DNA of 64,000 nucleotides from Eubacteriales bacterium (GTDB lineage Bacteria > Bacillota > Clostridia > Christensenellales > CAG-138). The stretch's first letter is position 1, and every line of letters begins with the position of its first letter. The stretch lies in the NCBI GenBank assembly GCA_021373115.1, contig JAJFTI010000036.1:12524-76523 (forward strand). The letters run 5' to 3'. Under the pieces are notes generated by a model, which did not search any database, had not been told where the DNA came from, and saw only the letters and a program-made list of their open reading frames with translations. Both the position numbers and the translations under genes were made by a program. Positions 42,293 to 48,858 of the stretch are shown in pieces.

Positions 42293-42904
42293 TCAGGTTT
42301 CGCCTTCCGCGCACGATTCCGCGCGCTTCCGGCCCGAAACAACATAGATCTCGTCGCTGGATTCGACAACGTCCACGTCCATCCACACGCGCATCAGTTC
42401 GGCAAGCGCCGTTTCGCTGAGCAGTCCAATGGAAACCCGGCAAGCCGAGCCGGTATGATGGCGGTTGATATCCGCGCGGCTCATGCCATGCGCAACCGTC
42501 AGCCGTCCGCCCGGAACGAGCTGGCTGGCCAGGTGGCGAAGCAGCCGCTCCGGCTCCGGAAAATGCGGAAAAGCGTTGTAAATGACACAGCGGTCAAACG
42601 CGCAGGAAAACTCCAGCTCCTCGATATCCGCCGCCAGCAGCTGAATGCGCGGATCGGTAAACTTTTCCTTTGCGCGCGCAATCATCGCGGGCGAAAGATC
42701 AACCGCCGTAACAGCCGCAGCGCCCCTGTCCAGATAATCCCCCAGCAATACACCCGTTCCGCAGGCAACGTCCAGCACGGATACGCCCGCGCGGATATCC
42801 GCATAGTCGAGAATCCTCTTGAGCCGCTGTTCGTTTCGCACCTGATTCGCATCCCAGGTTGGAGCCAGTTGGTCGAAATACCGAATTACGTCACCTTTAT
42901 GCAA
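42293..42904 (-). CDS. Class I SAM-dependent methyltransferase, substrate unknown
   Basis: Motif I VLDVACGTGVL and motif post-I AVDLSPAMI. Confidence 0.8.
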   Translation of the reverse strand: MHKGDVIRYFDQLAPTWDANQVRNEQRLKRILDYADIRAGVSVLDVACGTGVLLGDYLDRGAAAVTAVDLSPAMIARAKEKFTDPRIQLLAADIEELEFSCAFDRCVIYNAFPHFPEPERLLRHLASQLVPGGRLTVAHGMSRADINRHHTGSACRVSIGLLSETALAELMRVWMDVDVVESSDEIYVVSGRKRAESCAEGET

Positions 42905-43048
42905 ACTGCGTGTATCCTTTTCTTGTATTTGAAAGGGGAATCTGCGAGCCGTTCCTACAGGTTGTAATTATAGTGGATTCCAGAAGCGTTGTCCACACGA
43001 GCGCCATTTCACCATGAACGTGCCTTCCTTTGGAACCAAAATTCGTTA

Positions 43049-43077
43049 TTGACAAACGTCCGCATATCTTGTATTCT
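43049..43077 (+). promoter_or_regulatory. Candidate pyr operon promoter TTGACA-17-TATTCT
   Basis: Hand-read hexamers at 43049-43054 and 43072-43077. Confidence 0.5.
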
Positions 43078-43116
43078 ACTCAAAATGAGTTTAATAGGAA
43101 CAGGAGGCGAACCGGT

Positions 43117-43224
43117 ATGAGTCCGCGCAGAGTGCAACATGTTAAGAAAAAATGCGCTTGCGGCATCCGTGTTTCATCCAATTCCATTCCACTTTCTATT
43201 TCGTTTTCAAACACTGGTTTTTAA
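43117..43224 (+). CDS. Candidate 35-codon pyr leader peptide (MSPRRVQHVKKKCACGIRVSSNSIPLSISFSNTGF)
   Basis: AGGAGG (43102-43107) lies 9 nt before the ATG. The ORF is the 3' part of track ORF 43030..43224. Its TAA sits at the apex of the terminator hairpin. Confidence 0.4.
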   Translation: MSPRRVQHVKKKCACGIRVSSNSIPLSISFSNTGF

Positions 43225-43239
43225 CCAGTGTTTTTTTTT
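43208..43239 (+). terminator. Attenuator terminator in the pyrB leader
   Basis: Stem aaacactggtt (43209-43219) / aaccagtgttt (43223-43233), with a run of 9 T (43231-43239). It lies 39 nt upstream of the pyrB ATG. Confidence 0.7.
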
Positions 43240-43277
43240 GCCCGAATCTATATTCAACAAAGGAGAGTGCCGCACCT

Positions 43278-44210
43278 ATGCTGGAATGTAAAAGCCTGAT
43301 CGCCCCAAGCGACCTATCCCTGACGGAACTGGAAAAACTGATCGCGCTGGCCCGGCGCATCATCCAAAACCCCGCGCGTTATGCGGAGGTCTGCAAGGGA
43401 AAGATCCTCGCAAGCCTGTTTTATGAACCTTCTACCCGAACGAAATTCTCCTTCGACGCGGCGATGCTCCGCCTCGGCGGCAGCACGCTGGGGTTTTCCG
43501 ATCCCAGTACCTCCAGCACGGCCAAGGGCGAAACCATTGCGGACAGCGCGCGGACGGTTGGCCAGTATGCCGATTTAATCGTCGTGCGGCACCCCAAGGA
43601 AGGCACGGCAAAGCTCATGAGCCGCTACGCCGCCTGCCCCGTCATCAACGCGGGCGACGGCGGACATCACCACCCGACGCAGACGCTCACGGATCTACTA
43701 ACCATCGATCATTATAAAGGAAACTTCAGCGGGCTTACGGTCGGCGTTTGCGGCGATCTCAAGTTCGGCCGGACGATCCACTCGCTGACCACTTGCCTCG
43801 CGCGGTTCCAGAACGTGCGATTCCTCTTCATCTCTCCGGAGGAGCTGGCCATGCCCGTCTTCGTGAAGGAGGAGTTGGACGCAAAGGGCGTATCCTACAC
43901 GGAAACAACCAGTCTGGAAGGCTGCATCGGTGAGCTGGACGTGCTCTACATGTCCCGCGTGCAGCGCGAGCGGTTCATCAGCGAAGAGGAATACCTGCGG
44001 CTGAAGGACTACTTCGTCCTCACCACCGAAAAAATGGCGCTGGCCAAGCCGGATATGATCGTAATGCATCCCCTGCCGCGCGTCAACGAAATTGCCACCG
44101 AGGTGGATGCGGACCCGCGGGCGGTATACTTCGATCAGGTCAAGTTCGGCATGTACATCCGCATGGCACTCATCATGAAACTGCTCGGCATGGAAGAACC
44201 GCACGCCTGA
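43278..44210 (+). CDS. pyrB: Aspartate carbamoyltransferase catalytic subunit
   Basis: ORF trimmed to MLECKSLI (ATG 43278, AAAGGAGAG upstream). Motifs EPSTRTKFSF, HPTQ and HPLPR. Confidence 0.9.
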   Translation: MLECKSLIAPSDLSLTELEKLIALARRIIQNPARYAEVCKGKILASLFYEPSTRTKFSFDAAMLRLGGSTLGFSDPSTSSTAKGETIADSARTVGQYADLIVVRHPKEGTAKLMSRYAACPVINAGDGGHHHPTQTLTDLLTIDHYKGNFSGLTVGVCGDLKFGRTIHSLTTCLARFQNVRFLFISPEELAMPVFVKEELDAKGVSYTETTSLEGCIGELDVLYMSRVQRERFISEEEYLRLKDYFVLTTEKMALAKPDMIVMHPLPRVNEIATEVDADPRAVYFDQVKFGMYIRMALIMKLLGMEEPHA

Positions 44211-44236: not shown

Positions 44237-44659
44237 ATGATCAACGTTTCAAAACTGAAAGAGGGCATCGTGATCGACCATATTCGCGCGGGTCACGGAT
44301 ACAAGATTTTTCTCCAGCTCGGTCTGGACGCGCTGGACGATGTGGTGGTGCTCATGCGGAACGTGGAGAGCACCAAAATGGGTCGCAAGGACCTGATTAA
44401 AATCGAAACGAATCTGGATTTGAACCTGGACGTGCTCGGTCTGATCGATCCGGACGTGACGATTACCTACGTAAAAGAAGGCAAGTGCGTGCAGAAAATC
44501 AAGCTCTCGCCGCCGAAGACCGTAACGGGCATTCTTTCCTGCAAAAATCCACGCTGCATCACGAATCAGGAACATATTTCCGACGTACGGTTCCATCTCG
44601 TGGACGCAAAGACGAATCTGTATGCCTGCGAATATTGCGACGCGCGGACGCGCCTGTAA
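44237..44659 (+). CDS. pyrI: Aspartate carbamoyltransferase regulatory subunit
   Basis: 140 aa. N-terminal segment VIDHIRAGHG. C-terminal Zn site CKNPRCITN...CEYCD. Confidence 0.9.
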   Translation: MINVSKLKEGIVIDHIRAGHGYKIFLQLGLDALDDVVVLMRNVESTKMGRKDLIKIETNLDLNLDVLGLIDPDVTITYVKEGKCVQKIKLSPPKTVTGILSCKNPRCITNQEHISDVRFHLVDAKTNLYACEYCDARTRL

Positions 44660-44668
44660 GGAGAAACG

Positions 44669-45829
44669 ATGATTACGCAATACCGAAATGCCAGGCTGAT
44701 CGACGCAGCGGGGGAACGCTGCGGCGATCTTTGCGTTGAAGACGGCACCATTGTCTTCTGCGGCCCGTTGAACTGGCAGCGCGCGGATCGGACGGTGGAT
44801 GTGCGCGGGCTTGTGCTGATGCCCGCGTTTATCGACCTGCACTGCCACCTGCGCGATCCGGGTTTTCCGGAAAAGGAAACCATGGAAAGCGGCATGAAGG
44901 CGGCGCTTGCGGGCGGCTATGCGCACCTGTGCGCAATGGCAAACACGAACCCCGTCATCGATTCGCCGTCGCTGGTCGTAACAAATCTGAATCAGGCAAA
45001 ATCCCTCCGGCTCTGCCGGCTGACGCAGGCAGCCGCGGCGGGCAGGCAGCTCGGCGACGAAATGCCGACCGACCGCACCGCGCTCAGCCGTGTAACCAAC
45101 CTTGTCAGTAACGACGGCAAGACCATTCTTTCCGGCGACTTCATGCGGCAGCTGCTCCGGGATTCGGCTCGATACGGGTTTGTTGTCAGCACGCATTGCC
45201 AGCCGGAGCGCGCGACCGTTGCGCGGGACATCGCGCTCTTGCGCGAAGTCGGCGGCAACCTGCACGTCGGCCATGTCAGCCGCGCGGAAACGGTGGAAAT
45301 GATCCGCAAAGCGAAGGCGGAAGGGCTGCCCATCACCTGTGAGGTAACCCCACACCATCTGATTGGATTTGACAGCGATTATAAAGTGAATCCTCCGCTG
45401 CGAACCAAAGAGGATACGCTCGCACTGATCGCGGGCATTCGGGACGGCACAATCGACTGCCTCGCCACCGACCACGCGCCGCATACCGAGGCGGACAAGC
45501 GAAACGGAGCAGCCGGGATTTCGAATATCGAATATGCTATGCAGGTCTACCTGAAGGTCTTTTCCGAGCACGGCATTCCGCTCACGCGCCTCTCCGAAAT
45601 GGCTTCGCTCGCACCCGCAAAGCGCCTTGGCCGAAAAGCCGGGCTGTTGCAGGCGGGATATCCGGCGGACGTTACCATTCTTTCCACCGAAGAGGAAAGT
45701 GTGATTCACAGTAAGCAGATGCTCTCGCGCTCACACAATACGCCGTTCGACGGCTGGCGGGTACGCGGCAGAGTTCAAGCCACAATTATTGAAGGGGAGA
45801 CACGATATGAGTATGGAAAAATTGGTTAA
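44669..45829 (+). CDS. pyrC: Dihydroorotase
   Basis: Motifs FIDLHCHLRDPG and ATDHAPH. Confidence 0.9.
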   Translation: MITQYRNARLIDAAGERCGDLCVEDGTIVFCGPLNWQRADRTVDVRGLVLMPAFIDLHCHLRDPGFPEKETMESGMKAALAGGYAHLCAMANTNPVIDSPSLVVTNLNQAKSLRLCRLTQAAAAGRQLGDEMPTDRTALSRVTNLVSNDGKTILSGDFMRQLLRDSARYGFVVSTHCQPERATVARDIALLREVGGNLHVGHVSRAETVEMIRKAKAEGLPITCEVTPHHLIGFDSDYKVNPPLRTKEDTLALIAGIRDGTIDCLATDHAPHTEADKRNGAAGISNIEYAMQVYLKVFSEHGIPLTRLSEMASLAPAKRLGRKAGLLQAGYPADVTILSTEEESVIHSKQMLSRSHNTPFDGWRVRGRVQATIIEGETRYEYGKIG

Positions 45830-46658
45830 CGCGGCTCGAAGGAAAGGCCCCGTTTGCGTTGGTCTCGACACGCAGCTTTCCTTTTTGCCGGAGTACCTCA
45901 AGGCGAAGGACTGGTCCGACGGCGAAAAAATTTTTGAGTTTAACCGCGCAATCATCGAAGCGACCGAGGACGAGGCGGGCTGTTTTAAACTCCAGATCGC
46001 GTTTTACGAAGCGCTCGGGCTGGACGGCATGGCGGCGTTTTCCAAAACGCTCCGCTACGCGCGAGGCCGCGGCAACGTTACCATTACGGACGCGAAGCGC
46101 GGGGATATCTCCTCCACCGCGGAACAGTACGCAAAGGCGCACTTTTCCGGCGATTTCGAAACGGACGTGATGACGATCAACGTCTTCATGGGCGAGGACG
46201 CGGTCTCTCCGTATTATCCCTACCTCGCGAAGGATAAGGGCGTGTTCGCGCTGGTGAAAACCAGCAATCCCAGCGGAAAGGATTTTCAGGACTTGCGCAT
46301 CGACGGCGAAACGCTCTACGAGCGCACCGCGCGGAAGGTCTCCGAGTGGGGCGAACGCTTTCTTGGCGAAAGCGGGTTTTCCGCCATCGGCGCGGTCACG
46401 GGGCTGACCTATCCGGAGGAGTTCGAGCGCATCCGCCCGCTATTGCCGCATACCTTTCTGCTCATTCCCGGTTACGGCGCACAGGGCGGAACGGGCAAGG
46501 ACATCGCCGGATTCTTTCAGGGCGGCGTCCGCGGCGTGGTCAACTCCTCGCGCGGGCTGATCACCGCGCACAAGGGTAAAACGGAAGGCGAGGATTTTGT
46601 TAAGTATGTCCGCCAGGCCGTGCTCGACATGAAGAAGGATATCCTCCAGTGGCTGTAA
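45807..46658 (+). CDS. pyrF: Orotidine-5'-phosphate decarboxylase (long, type 2)
   Basis: Start taken at ATG 45807 (GAAGGGGAG upstream). Motifs VCVGLDT and DAKRGDI. Confidence 0.85.
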   Translation: MSMEKLVNAARRKGPVCVGLDTQLSFLPEYLKAKDWSDGEKIFEFNRAIIEATEDEAGCFKLQIAFYEALGLDGMAAFSKTLRYARGRGNVTITDAKRGDISSTAEQYAKAHFSGDFETDVMTINVFMGEDAVSPYYPYLAKDKGVFALVKTSNPSGKDFQDLRIDGETLYERTARKVSEWGERFLGESGFSAIGAVTGLTYPEEFERIRPLLPHTFLLIPGYGAQGGTGKDIAGFFQGGVRGVVNSSRGLITAHKGKTEGEDFVKYVRQAVLDMKKDILQWL

Positions 46659-47365
46659 TACGAAGCAACCATCGCATCGCGGCGGGTGTCTACCGCATGA
46701 CGGTCTCCGGCGTTCCGCTTGGCCGCGCGGGGCAGTTCTTCATGCTGCGGGTTTCCGGCGTGCTTGATCCGCTGCTTGGTCGGCCGATCAGCATTTTCGG
46801 TGCGGATGCCGGAACCGGTGAAACGACATTTGTCTACCAGACGCCGGGGCGCGGCACGGCGCTGTTCGCCGACCTGCTGCCCGGGCAGGCGATTGACGCG
46901 CAGGGGCCTTATGGAAACGGTTTCCCGCTGGAATCCGGCGGAGCGGTGATTCTTGGCGGCGGCATCGGCGTCGCCCCCCTGCATCAGCTTGCAAAGGAAT
47001 TGCGCGCCAGCGACCCAAAACGGCGCATCGACGTGTTCCTCGGCTTTCGCGAGGAAGCCTATTGTGTCGCGGACTTCGAGCAGCTTTCCGACTCGGTTAC
47101 GGTGAGCGTTGGCGGAATCGTGACCAACGACGTCGATTTTTCGGAAAATGCCGTTTACTATGCCTGCGGCCCCGCGCCCATGCTTCATACGGCGGCTGAG
47201 CAGGCGCGGGCAGCGAACGCGCGGTTTTTCGTTTCGCTCGAAAAGCATATGGCCTGCGGCGTCGGCGCCTGCCTCGGCTGCACCTGCGAAACGACAAACG
47301 GCAGAAAACGCGTCTGCAAGGACGGGCCGGTATTCGAATACTCGGAGGTGCAGCATGTCCTATAA
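46649..47365 (+). CDS. pyrK: Dihydroorotate dehydrogenase B electron-transfer subunit
   Basis: FAD/NAD(P)-binding fold. C-terminal 2Fe-2S motif MACGVGACLGCTC. Confidence 0.85.
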   Translation: MAVIRSNHRIAAGVYRMTVSGVPLGRAGQFFMLRVSGVLDPLLGRPISIFGADAGTGETTFVYQTPGRGTALFADLLPGQAIDAQGPYGNGFPLESGGAVILGGGIGVAPLHQLAKELRASDPKRRIDVFLGFREEAYCVADFEQLSDSVTVSVGGIVTNDVDFSENAVYYACGPAPMLHTAAEQARAANARFFVSLEKHMACGVGACLGCTCETTNGRKRVCKDGPVFEYSEVQHVL

Positions 47366-48263
47366 TCCGCTTTCGCTCGAACTCTGCGGCGTTTCGCTGA
47401 AGAATCCGGTCATTGCCGCAAGCGGCACCTTCGGGTTCGGGCGCGAATACGCCGAACGGATGGAAGTTTCCCGTCTTGGTGGCATCTGCGGCAAGGGGCT
47501 GACGCTGCGCGGCAGCGCGGGAAACGCCGGTGAGCGCGTTTACGAAACCCGCTCTAGCATGCTTAACAGCATCGGTCTGGAAAACCCCGGCGTGAAGCAC
47601 TTTGTGGAACACGAAGCGGCATTCATGCGCTCGCTCGGACCCGCGGTCATCGCAAACCTCGGCGGACACAGCGAGGCGGACTATTTAGAGGGCGCGGAGC
47701 TGCTCAACGAAGCGGATATCGATCTGCTGGAGCTCAACATCTCCTGTCCGAATGTCAAAGCGGGCGGCATGGCTTTCGGTATACTGCCGGAGACGGCGGC
47801 GGACATTACGCGAAGAGTCAAGGCGATCTCGCGACATCCGCTGATGGTTAAACTTTCGCCAAACGCGCCGGATCTCACTGCCGTTGCGCGCGCTTGCGAA
47901 GAAGCGGGCGCGGACGCGCTGAGCCTCGTAAATACTTTTCTCGGTATGGCGATCGACGTGAAGCGCAGACGTCCGGTGTTCGACAATGTCTACGCCGGGC
48001 TTTCCGGACCCGCGATCTTCCCGCTTGCGCTGCGAATGGTGCACCAGGTGTGCAAGAGCGTATCGATTCCCGTGGTCGGAATGGGCGGCATCGCATCGGC
48101 GGAGGACGCGATCCGGATGATTTTAGCGGGCGCGCGGGCGGTGCAGGTCGGCACGATGACGTTTGCCAGCCCGAACACCCTGCTGGAAATCATAGACGGA
48201 CTTTCTGCCTGGTGCGCCAAAGAGAGAATCTCAAATCTGCAGGAAATCTGCGGGATTATATAA
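47355..48263 (+). CDS. pyrD: Dihydroorotate dehydrogenase B catalytic subunit
   Basis: ORF trimmed to MSYNPLSLELCGVSLKNPVIAASGTFGFG (ATG 47355). Motifs NISCPN and GGI. Confidence 0.9.
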   Translation: MSYNPLSLELCGVSLKNPVIAASGTFGFGREYAERMEVSRLGGICGKGLTLRGSAGNAGERVYETRSSMLNSIGLENPGVKHFVEHEAAFMRSLGPAVIANLGGHSEADYLEGAELLNEADIDLLELNISCPNVKAGGMAFGILPETAADITRRVKAISRHPLMVKLSPNAPDLTAVARACEEAGADALSLVNTFLGMAIDVKRRRPVFDNVYAGLSGPAIFPLALRMVHQVCKSVSIPVVGMGGIASAEDAIRMILAGARAVQVGTMTFASPNTLLEIIDGLSAWCAKERISNLQEICGII

Positions 48264-48276
48264 GGAGACTGGTATT

Positions 48277-48858
48277 ATGAACGATCATTTGAAGGTTATG
48301 AAACAGTGTGAAGCGTTTCTGGAGGGGCATTTTCTGCTCTCCTCCGGGCGGCACAGCGGCGGCTATTGCCAGTGCGCCAAGCTTCTGCGCTTTCCCGCGC
48401 TCGCGGAGCAGGTGCTCTCCGCCGTGGTCGAACAGGTGAAGAACCTGCCGATCACCAAGGTCTGCGGACCTGCGATGGGAGGGATTATCGTTTCCTACGA
48501 GCTCGCGCGTCAGCTTGGTGTCGAGAGCATCTTCACCGAGCGCAAGGACGACGTTATGCAACTCCGGCGGGGTTTCTCGGTTGGTCCAGGCGACCGGGTT
48601 CTGATTGCGGAGGACGTGATCACCACCGGAAAATCCACGATGGAAACGGTAGAAGCACTGGAAGCCATGGGCGCGGAAGTGATCGGCGCCGCCTGCATTG
48701 CGGATCGCCGCGCGGCAGGCTGCGACTTTCCCCTCCCTGTTTACGCGGCGCTGAAACTCTCCATCGAGTCCTATGAAGCAGACGCCTGCCCCATTTGCCA
48801 GGAGGGAATTCTCCCTCTCGAAAAACCAGGCAGCCGCGAAATGCCCGCATTAAAATAG
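48277..48858 (+). CDS. pyrE: Orotate phosphoribosyltransferase
   Basis: PRPP-binding motif VLIAEDVITTGKS. Confidence 0.9.
   Translation: MNDHLKVMKQCEAFLEGHFLLSSGRHSGGYCQCAKLLRFPALAEQVLSAVVEQVKNLPITKVCGPAMGGIIVSYELARQLGVESIFTERKDDVMQLRRGFSVGPGDRVLIAEDVITTGKSTMETVEALEAMGAEVIGAACIADRRAAGCDFPLPVYAALKLSIESYEADACPICQEGILPLEKPGSREMPALK

Follow-up and report, generated by a model that had tools for sequence, protein, structure and literature searches.

The pyrimidine operon pyrBICFKDE of a Eubacteriales bacterium (Christensenellales, CAG-138) is preceded by a short leader in which an open reading frame (ORF) ends inside the hairpin of an intrinsic terminator. The operon lies on a 64,000-nucleotide stretch of contig JAJFTI010000036.1 (assembly GCA_021373115.1), which we call the window. 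From the layout of the leader and its conservation among relatives, we think it likely that it works as a ribosome-dependent, probably uridine triphosphate (UTP)-sensitive attenuator, analogous but not homologous to the pyrL-pyrBI attenuator of E. coli. E. coli is the textbook case of UTP-sensitive attenuation of pyrimidine genes coupled to translation, a mechanism seen as peculiar to enterobacteria; in Firmicutes, PyrR is the expected regulator. An earlier reading of the window, made from the sequence only, had proposed a pyrBI-style, translation-coupled attenuator. That proposal gains support from the absence of PyrR and from a geometry of ORF, Shine-Dalgarno (SD) sequence and terminator that is conserved in 44 related leaders despite large changes in length.

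The attenuator region measures 229 nucleotides (nt) from the -35 box to pyrB (Table 1), and its parts lie where the sequence-only reading had placed them: a promoter, an AGGAGG-9 nt-ATG start, an ORF of 35 codons, a hairpin and nine T. A 17-nt spacer separates the -35 box (TTGACA, 43049-43054) from the -10 box (TATTCT, 43072-43077), and from the position of the latter transcription is predicted to start at about 43083-43085. The hairpin is made up of a 5' arm (43209-43219), a loop (43220-43222) and a 3' arm (43223-43233), to which the first three T of the nine-T run belong, and transcript release is predicted at about 43237-43239. The TAA of the leader ORF (43222-43224) begins on the last base of the loop and extends two bases into the 3' arm. 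That this stop codon sits at the apex of an 11-base-pair hairpin followed by nine T had been recognized correctly; the distance to the pyrB ATG (43278), given as 39 nt, is 38 nt counted from the last T. The U-rich stretch that had been described ahead of the hairpin is also present, with 49% T at 43166-43208 as against 22.5% genome-wide, 79% pyrimidine and only three G. We regard this tract as a candidate UTP-sensitive slow zone for RNA polymerase, its composition being what suggests pausing.

Two further start codons were considered and rejected. An ORF of 50 codons that opens at ATG 43139 and crosses the terminator has no SD and is not conserved in the nearest relative; another that opens at ATG 43152, in frame with pyrB, likewise has no SD and is not conserved. 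Both are probably products of chance. From ATG 43152 the pyrB frame continues uninterrupted across the terminator, and PyrB would gain an N-terminal extension of 42 codons if this start were used.

Table 1. Leader elements and operon genes at the pyr locus, in window coordinates.
Feature	Position	Strand	Evidence or remark
Sigma-70-type promoter TTGACA-17-TATTCT	43049..43077	+	10/12 positions match; promoter scan
A-rich initially transcribed region ACTCAAAATGAGT (5-3-5 palindrome)	43078..43090	+	conserved in alignments
Shine-Dalgarno AGGAGG of leader ORF	43102..43107	+	9 nt before ATG 43117
Leader ORF MSPRRVQHVKKKCACGIRVSSNSIPLSISFSNTGF, 35 sense codons + TAA	43117..43224	+	orthologous ORF across genus
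Pyrimidine/U-rich tract inside leader ORF	43166..43208	+	49% T, 79% pyrimidine
Predicted terminator (attenuator) hairpin, 11 perfect pairs, 3-nt loop	43209..43233	+	free energy -12.5 kcal/mol
Run of nine T, U-tract of intrinsic terminator	43231..43239	+	columns invariant in alignments
Shine-Dalgarno region AAGGAGAG of pyrB	43260..43267	+	AAAGGAG block conserved in alignment
pyrB, aspartate carbamoyltransferase catalytic chain	43278..44210	+	TIGR00670, 335 bits
pyrI, aspartate carbamoyltransferase regulatory chain	44237..44659	+	NF002063, 174 bits
pyrC, dihydroorotase	44669..45829	+	TIGR00857, 291 bits
pyrF, orotidine monophosphate decarboxylase (start codon uncertain)	45789..46658	+	TIGR02127, 232 bits
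pyrK, dihydroorotate dehydrogenase electron-transfer subunit	46649..47365	+	NF000798, 220 bits
pyrD, dihydroorotate dehydrogenase	47365..48263	+	NF005574, 391 bits
pyrE, orotate phosphoribosyltransferase, last operon gene	48277..48858	+	TIGR01367, 207 bits

Taken alone, the ORF of the window is barely beyond chance, so the evidence for it comes from its relatives, where conservation far exceeds chance. A search of 40 related genomes with the PyrB of the window returned orthologues that are 80-91% identical in 20 genomes of the same genus, and a scan of named genome records returned 80 loci, the closest of them from metagenome-assembled genomes labelled uncultured Christensenellaceae or 'Christensenella sp.'. 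The 44 distinct related leaders are those that carry the conserved terminator motif, with PyrB at least 73% identical. In every one of them an SD-led ATG ORF, 13-123 codons long, reaches the final terminator. Its stop codon falls inside the hairpin in 35 leaders, no more than 11 nt upstream of it in 7 and in the U-run in 1, and 1 ORF reads through. An SD-like purine block precedes the leader ATG in all relatives.

Within the genus the ORF takes lengths of 30, 33, 35, 43, 72, 82, 95, 96, 105, 111, 119 and 123 codons, and around this variation a constant set of elements is retained in all leaders: the -35 and -10 boxes, the block AAATGAGTAAAA, a purine-rich SD, an ATG followed by (A/C)xx-CCG-CGx, and the final hairpin. 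Upstream alignments show the -35 box, the spacing and a -10 box of TATTCT or TATACT kept throughout. The final hairpin has the form AACAYCGGTT..AACCGGTGTT followed by at least seven T, and a T-rich tract precedes it in all leaders of the genus, which are 33-41% T overall. Three combinations of hairpin and stop codon occur (..NTGF-TAA/TAG, ..PTSVF-TAA and ..NTGS-TGA), and all of them place the stop either within the loop or where the 3' arm begins. Summed over 22 leaders, the ORF frame contains no stop codon, as against 53 and 45 in the other two frames, and for the long leaders the chance of such an open frame, estimated by shuffling, is 0.0004-0.04 each.

Farther away the sequences change and the arrangement persists. 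In a sister clade (PyrB 73-81% identical) the hairpin is a different one, AACACTGGTGC..CCAAGTGTT followed by T9, and the ORF (MRLRLKYNRI.., 13-31 codons) ends in the loop (..NTGAF) or a few nt before the hairpin. Two still more divergent loci, L080 and L085 (PyrB 73-75% identical), have unrelated SD-led ORFs, 48-53 codons long, that cross both a U-rich tract and a different terminator before ending where pyrB starts. This is the register found in E. coli, and it suggests that the principle is broader than one homologous leader family. Four features persist amid all these changes: a promoter, an ORF with efficient initiation, at least one intrinsic terminator within the ORF or at its end, and a stop codon placed so that the last ribosome would cover the final hairpin. 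These are the features that ribosome-mediated suppression of termination requires.

The leader of the window is the minimal, single-terminator form, and tandem terminators are seen in its relatives, whose long leaders contain one to four extra modules of hairpin and U-run inside the ORF. Each module comprises a hairpin GCTTTGAYGAAAGR...YCTTTTCGATCAAAGC of about -12 to -17 kcal/mol followed by TTTTTTATT (U6), resembles an intrinsic terminator, and is translated as KALTK..FLFDQSFFI, with the Phe-Phe pairs coinciding with the terminator U-tracts. Modules are spaced 51, 69 or 72 nt apart, multiples of three in 17 of 17 cases (some leaders being counted under two locus ids), which means that the frame survived every expansion. 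We put forward, as a tentative idea to which we give slightly less than even weight, that this lineage replaced PyrR by an expandable cassette, a terminator inside an ORF. One to five intrinsic terminators would lie in a translated leader, their U-tracts read as Phe-Phe-Ile, and the ribosome would have to catch the polymerase and escort it through each of them, so that the leader would act as a multi-checkpoint UTP sensor with a gain tuned by copy number.

Could the ORF simply be a small-protein gene in its own right, with the terminator belonging to it, or could the hairpin act as an insulator or as a partial terminator that works constitutively, with pyrB not regulated here at all? Small genes closely followed by terminators are common, and the N-terminus is conserved at the amino-acid level. 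However, the product would in the relatives consist of a variable number of terminator-encoded modules, which is implausible for a functional polypeptide, and when the genome was crudely scanned for genes preceded by an SD-led ORF that ends in a strong terminator, pyrB was the only convincing case. Moreover, the 38 nt that follow the U-run offer neither room nor signal for a separate pyrB promoter, and all pyrB transcripts must therefore pass the terminator. This explanation strikes us as very improbable. BLAST found no paralogous leaders elsewhere in the genome. None of the three leader peptides that were looked up is present in a 15-billion-protein collection, and the leader ORF has no public protein call.

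The terminator hairpin itself covaries. Across 40 leaders, pairing is seen in 81.6% of the alignment cells and in no more than 59% when the partners are slid as a control, with compensatory changes at four pairs, one of which is the change from C-G to U-A in the window (ACTGG/CCAGT). In the 5' half of the leader, RNAalifold returns no conserved base pairs; the single-sequence fold of the leader is weakly better than shuffled sequences (z -1.9), and the minimum-free-energy fold of the single sequence contains no antiterminator, that is, no structure competing with the terminator. Over the first 20 codons, entropy is highest at the third position (0.78 vs 0.61 and 0.47; permutation p ~0.05), and this variability, together with the lack of conserved pairs in the 5' half, makes the conservation more coding-like than structural. 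Weak Rfam matches in the leader (ST7-OT3, STnc260, STnc310 and isrK) are far under their thresholds and were dismissed as chance.

These results bear on the idea that the terminator is controlled by a trans-acting RNA-binding protein or by a small-molecule-binding RNA fold, standing in for PyrR, with the ORF incidental to regulation. PyrR is the rule elsewhere in the order, and hence a functional replacement is needed. The 5' leader does contain conserved primary-sequence blocks, namely AAATGAGTAAAA, which lies at the predicted start site and is nearly invariant in the alignments, GGCAGGA and CGCCTCCGC, and the internal modules of the relatives, hairpins conserved in sequence, could be sites for a protein. 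Yet the leader matches no Rfam family, and the absence of conserved structure in its 5' half and the modest fold score speak against a dedicated RNA fold. Control of this kind would also leave unexplained why the frame is preserved over 30-123 codons, why the spacings are multiples of three and why the stop codon keeps to the loop. We consider it improbable, at roughly one chance in ten.

The search for PyrR itself came back empty. The Rfam family of the PyrR-binding RNA (RF00515) has no match in the window at the gathering score; relaxing the threshold to E<=10 for the leader and searching the whole genome brought up none either, with the B. subtilis and L. lactis controls positive. Nor is there a pyrR gene in the window or in the genome (assembly 89% complete), where the best match, at 34.7 bits against a cut-off of 138, is the hypoxanthine phosphoribosyltransferase Hpt (TIGR01203, 173 bits). 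The sequence-only reading had noted neither a PyrR site in the leader nor a pyrR gene in the window, and both observations thus hold and extend to the whole genome. PyrR protein scores fall below the cut-off in 30 of 31 genomes of the genus. The single exception, G004, encodes a true PyrR (240 bits; C1:33051-33575) and showed no close pyrB orthologue in the PyrB search of related genomes; it may have a different pyr locus, contain a mis-binned contig or be represented by an incomplete assembly (83% complete). Among 81 other genomes of the order, 28 have PyrR-element matches, directly upstream of pyrB in G025 and G028, and Anaerofustis-like relatives show sequences resembling the PyrR loop (AGCACGAGAGGCU). 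Since other families of the same order have PyrR sites, the leader-ORF design looks like a lineage-specific replacement of PyrR.

How might such a leader sense pyrimidines? In the attenuation model that we favor, the default state would be termination at the hairpin and U9 (43209-43239). Transcription would begin at about 43084, and a ribosome would load at the AGGAGG and ATG (43102-43119) and translate the 35-codon leader. With pyrimidine nucleotides plentiful, polymerase would cross the U/C-rich tract (43166-43208) and the U-run fast and outrun the ribosome; with the polymerase ahead, the hairpin would form and the transcript would end before pyrB. With UTP, and perhaps cytidine triphosphate, in short supply, polymerase would dwell in the U-rich tract and at the beginning of the U-run, and the leading ribosome would catch up. 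Standing on the last codons (AAC ACU GGU UUU UAA, which make up the 5' arm and loop), that ribosome would cover both arms of the hairpin, and polymerase would read through into pyrBICFKDE. As in pyrBI, polymerase speed set by UTP is the most likely variable, because the operon is purely pyrimidine-biosynthetic and the leaders of the genus are T-rich.

Why place the stop codon in the loop? The loop would be the most downstream site for a stop that still lies on the terminated RNA (ending at about 43237-43239) and still lets the ribosome mask the whole hairpin; we infer that ribosomes on attenuated transcripts can then release normally. When a stop codon lay 5 nt ahead of a terminator in E. coli, termination fell from about 90% to below 10%, an effect that was gone beyond about 27 nt (PMC4824070), and tight coupling across pyrL prevents the pyrBI terminator from acting (Roland et al. 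1988, as cited in PMC5021804).

The same pyrimidine-rich tract raises the question of whether Rho, acting on ribosome-free leader RNA as in polarity, is the main terminating agent and the hairpin a minor one. Rho is encoded in the genome (581 bits), the tract has the pyrimidine-rich, G-poor composition described above, and B. subtilis Rho is reported, in a passage of PMC13323073, to target pyrimidine-rich nascent RNA. Against this stand the canonical, covarying hairpin with U9 conserved in every leader, the fact that relatives multiply the element of hairpin and U-run rather than C-rich tracts, and the length of the tract, at about 45 nt short for Rho loading. A Rho mechanism could add to ribosome-dependent attenuation at the hairpin and is unlikely to replace it; as the principal explanation we give it very little credence.

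For comparison with known systems, we read the pyrL-pyrBI locus of E. coli K-12 directly. The E. coli and Salmonella attenuator shares with the window its targets pyrB and pyrI, a sigma-70 promoter, an SD-led leader ORF (44 codons as against 35 here) and a pyrimidine/U-rich run-up to an intrinsic terminator that overlaps the leader ORF shortly before pyrB. The U-runs are similar (U8 in E. coli, U9 here), and neither system needs an antiterminator structure. The registers differ: the E. coli pyrL ORF continues past the terminator, with its stop codon 3 nt ahead of the pyrB ATG, whereas that of the window stops in the hairpin loop. The peptides are not similar either (BLASTP E = 4.7), and neither the 35-residue peptide nor those of two relatives match the PyrL families PF08052 and NF007587, with which the E. 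coli PyrL control scores 117 and 120 bits. The leader of the window is best described as an independently evolved analogue of the pyrL-pyrBI attenuator in a Christensenellaceae lineage without PyrR, and not as a member of that family. The hosts belong to different phyla, Bacillota here and Gammaproteobacteria for pyrL-pyrBI, and to our knowledge extra terminators inside the ORF, of which relatives of the window locus carry up to four, are not found in pyrL.

Other attenuators share parts of this logic. At the rph-pyrE intercistronic attenuator of E. coli, reportedly treated in a 2008 review by Turnbough and Switzer, a ribosome finishing the upstream ORF near the terminator likewise suppresses termination when UTP limitation slows polymerase, and the seven related leaders whose ORFs stop shortly before the hairpin closely resemble rph, whose end is about 10 nt ahead of its hairpin. 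There, however, the upstream ORF is the full-length enzyme gene rph and not a dedicated leader with its own promoter, and the target is pyrE only. Attenuation by PyrR (RF00515), as in B. subtilis and most Firmicutes, has in common with the window the phylum, the kind of pyr operon and a leader terminator that is read through at low pyrimidines; the window leader differs in having a translated ORF and in lacking the PyrR-binding loop, the alternative of antiterminator and anti-antiterminator, and a pyrR gene. A leader ORF overlapping a terminator outside the enterobacteria is said to have been described by Van de Casteele et al. in 1997 upstream of the pyr genes of Thermus strain ZO5, where the model reportedly has PyrR bind the leader and block its translation; no PyrR is present here. 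In the tlrB (yxjB) leader of B. subtilis, pausing gives the ribosome time to translate a leader peptide (PMC12288461), but the signal is an antibiotic-stalled ribosome acting through alternative RNA structures, with NusG-dependent pausing at TTNTTT, and is unrelated to nucleotide sensing. Attenuators of the trpL, hisL and pheL type are marked by consecutive codons for the amino acid that regulates them and by a 2:3 antiterminator hairpin, neither of which was found in the window leader.

Several observations weigh against a UTP-sensitive, translation-coupled attenuator. The 35-codon frame of the window is open in 17% of shuffled sequences (P ~0.17) and is not significant by itself; the three-base periodicity of the N-terminal codons is marginal; and the hairpin sequence fixes which residues end the peptide, so that these are not independent evidence of coding. 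A second mechanism of E. coli is missing: UTP-sensitive reiterative transcription at pyrBI needs at least three T just after the start site (AATTTG; PMC6524683), and no such T-run is conserved here, where the window reads CAAAATGAGT.. and the relatives have their AAATGAGTAAAA block. The leader ORF of the sister clade is A-rich, not U-rich, which weakens the case for a U-rich pause tract; in that clade the U9 of the terminator may be the only U-rich sensor and a long U-rich tract may not be essential.

A further objection is that Bacillota are classed at phylum level, in section 29 of PMC13323073, as organisms of runaway transcription in which ribosomes lag behind polymerase, so that coupling would have to be created locally. 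Of 265 predicted terminators assigned to gene ends in the genome, none begins 0-5 nt after the stop codon, 21 begin at 6-11 nt and 97 at 12-20 nt, and the purine content of the sense strand is about 51-52%, vs 54% reported for B. subtilis. Terminator spacing and purine content, both crude and uncalibrated figures, hint at a regime that leans towards more coupling than in B. subtilis.

The composition of the sister-clade leaders also favors a different signal. Read-through could depend on the ribosome as proposed and yet respond to the state of translation, either through charged-tRNA supply or through general translation capacity and growth rate, such that a slowed ribosome misses the terminator and the operon is shut down. 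In the tRNA version, pyr expression would be linked to the shared carbamoyl-phosphate pool by way of the conserved Arg codons in MSPR..RLRTPR. The N-terminal part is indeed conserved at the codon level and rich in Arg (three Arg codons here, four or five in relatives), and carAB has no such leader, leaving the carbamoyl-phosphate branch point to separate regulation. But the Arg codons are mixed (CGC, AGA, CGT and CGG) and, unlike the regulatory codons of trpL or hisL, do not form a run of identical triplets, no alternative antiterminator structure was found, the target genes are purely pyrimidine genes and the leaders of the genus are strikingly U-rich. A translation-state signal seems to us unlikely, if the least so of the alternatives to UTP-sensitive attenuation.

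Several neighbouring features deserve mention. The operon has the order pyrB-I-C-F-K-D-E, with a strong NCBIfam match for each gene; the listed ORF of pyrD begins at 47148 and its true start lies near 47365, NF005574 matching from residue 74 of the long ORF. The carAB genes have neither leader ORF nor terminator, so the carbamoyl-phosphate step seems to be regulated separately from the pyr operon. Upstream of carA (contig C6, about 76,540-76,700, minus strand) a promoter TTGCAT-17-TATCAT follows an AT-rich repeat region, ATAAATATAAATATATATAGCATAAATATAAT, which might be an ArgR-type operator. The long-leader subclade of relatives has a conserved GC-rich element, CCCCGCCCGCGCGCGGAGGAGCG, in the stretch from the final terminator to the pyrB SD (for example L010:2413-2480, minus strand); it is absent from the window and may form a structure that affects pyrB translation.

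At the 5' end of the leader, the palindrome ACTCAAAATGAGT contains an ATG (43085-43087) at or beside the predicted start site. This ATG opens a mini-ORF of 11 codons whose TGA overlaps the leader ATG (ATGA, 43117-43120), an arrangement that is the same in the nearest relative and recurs with 4-5 codons in other relatives. The segment 43078-43120 could be a leaderless mini-ORF, an operator or merely a conserved initially transcribed sequence. Upstream of the pyr leader, a divergently transcribed gene for a class I S-adenosylmethionine-dependent methyltransferase (42293-42904) is served by a strong promoter of its own, TGGACA-17-TATAAT (42967-42995, minus strand; 11/12 matches), which shares a 373-nt intergenic region with the pyr promoter.

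In conclusion, the leader would, if its proposed function is confirmed, represent convergent evolution of the pyrBI logic in Clostridia and show that the proximity of ribosome and polymerase can be regulatory in Bacillota, in a phylum from which leader-peptide attenuators were long thought nearly absent (PMC2965389). It would also provide a compact natural reporter for testing coupling. If the cassette idea is true, keeping the stop codon in the loop would serve to prevent non-stop ribosomes on attenuated RNA, and the cassette would be natural evidence that physical or kinetic coupling of transcription and translation can be switched on locally in Bacillota. The leader peptides point, moreover, to a class of small ORFs that have gone unannotated.

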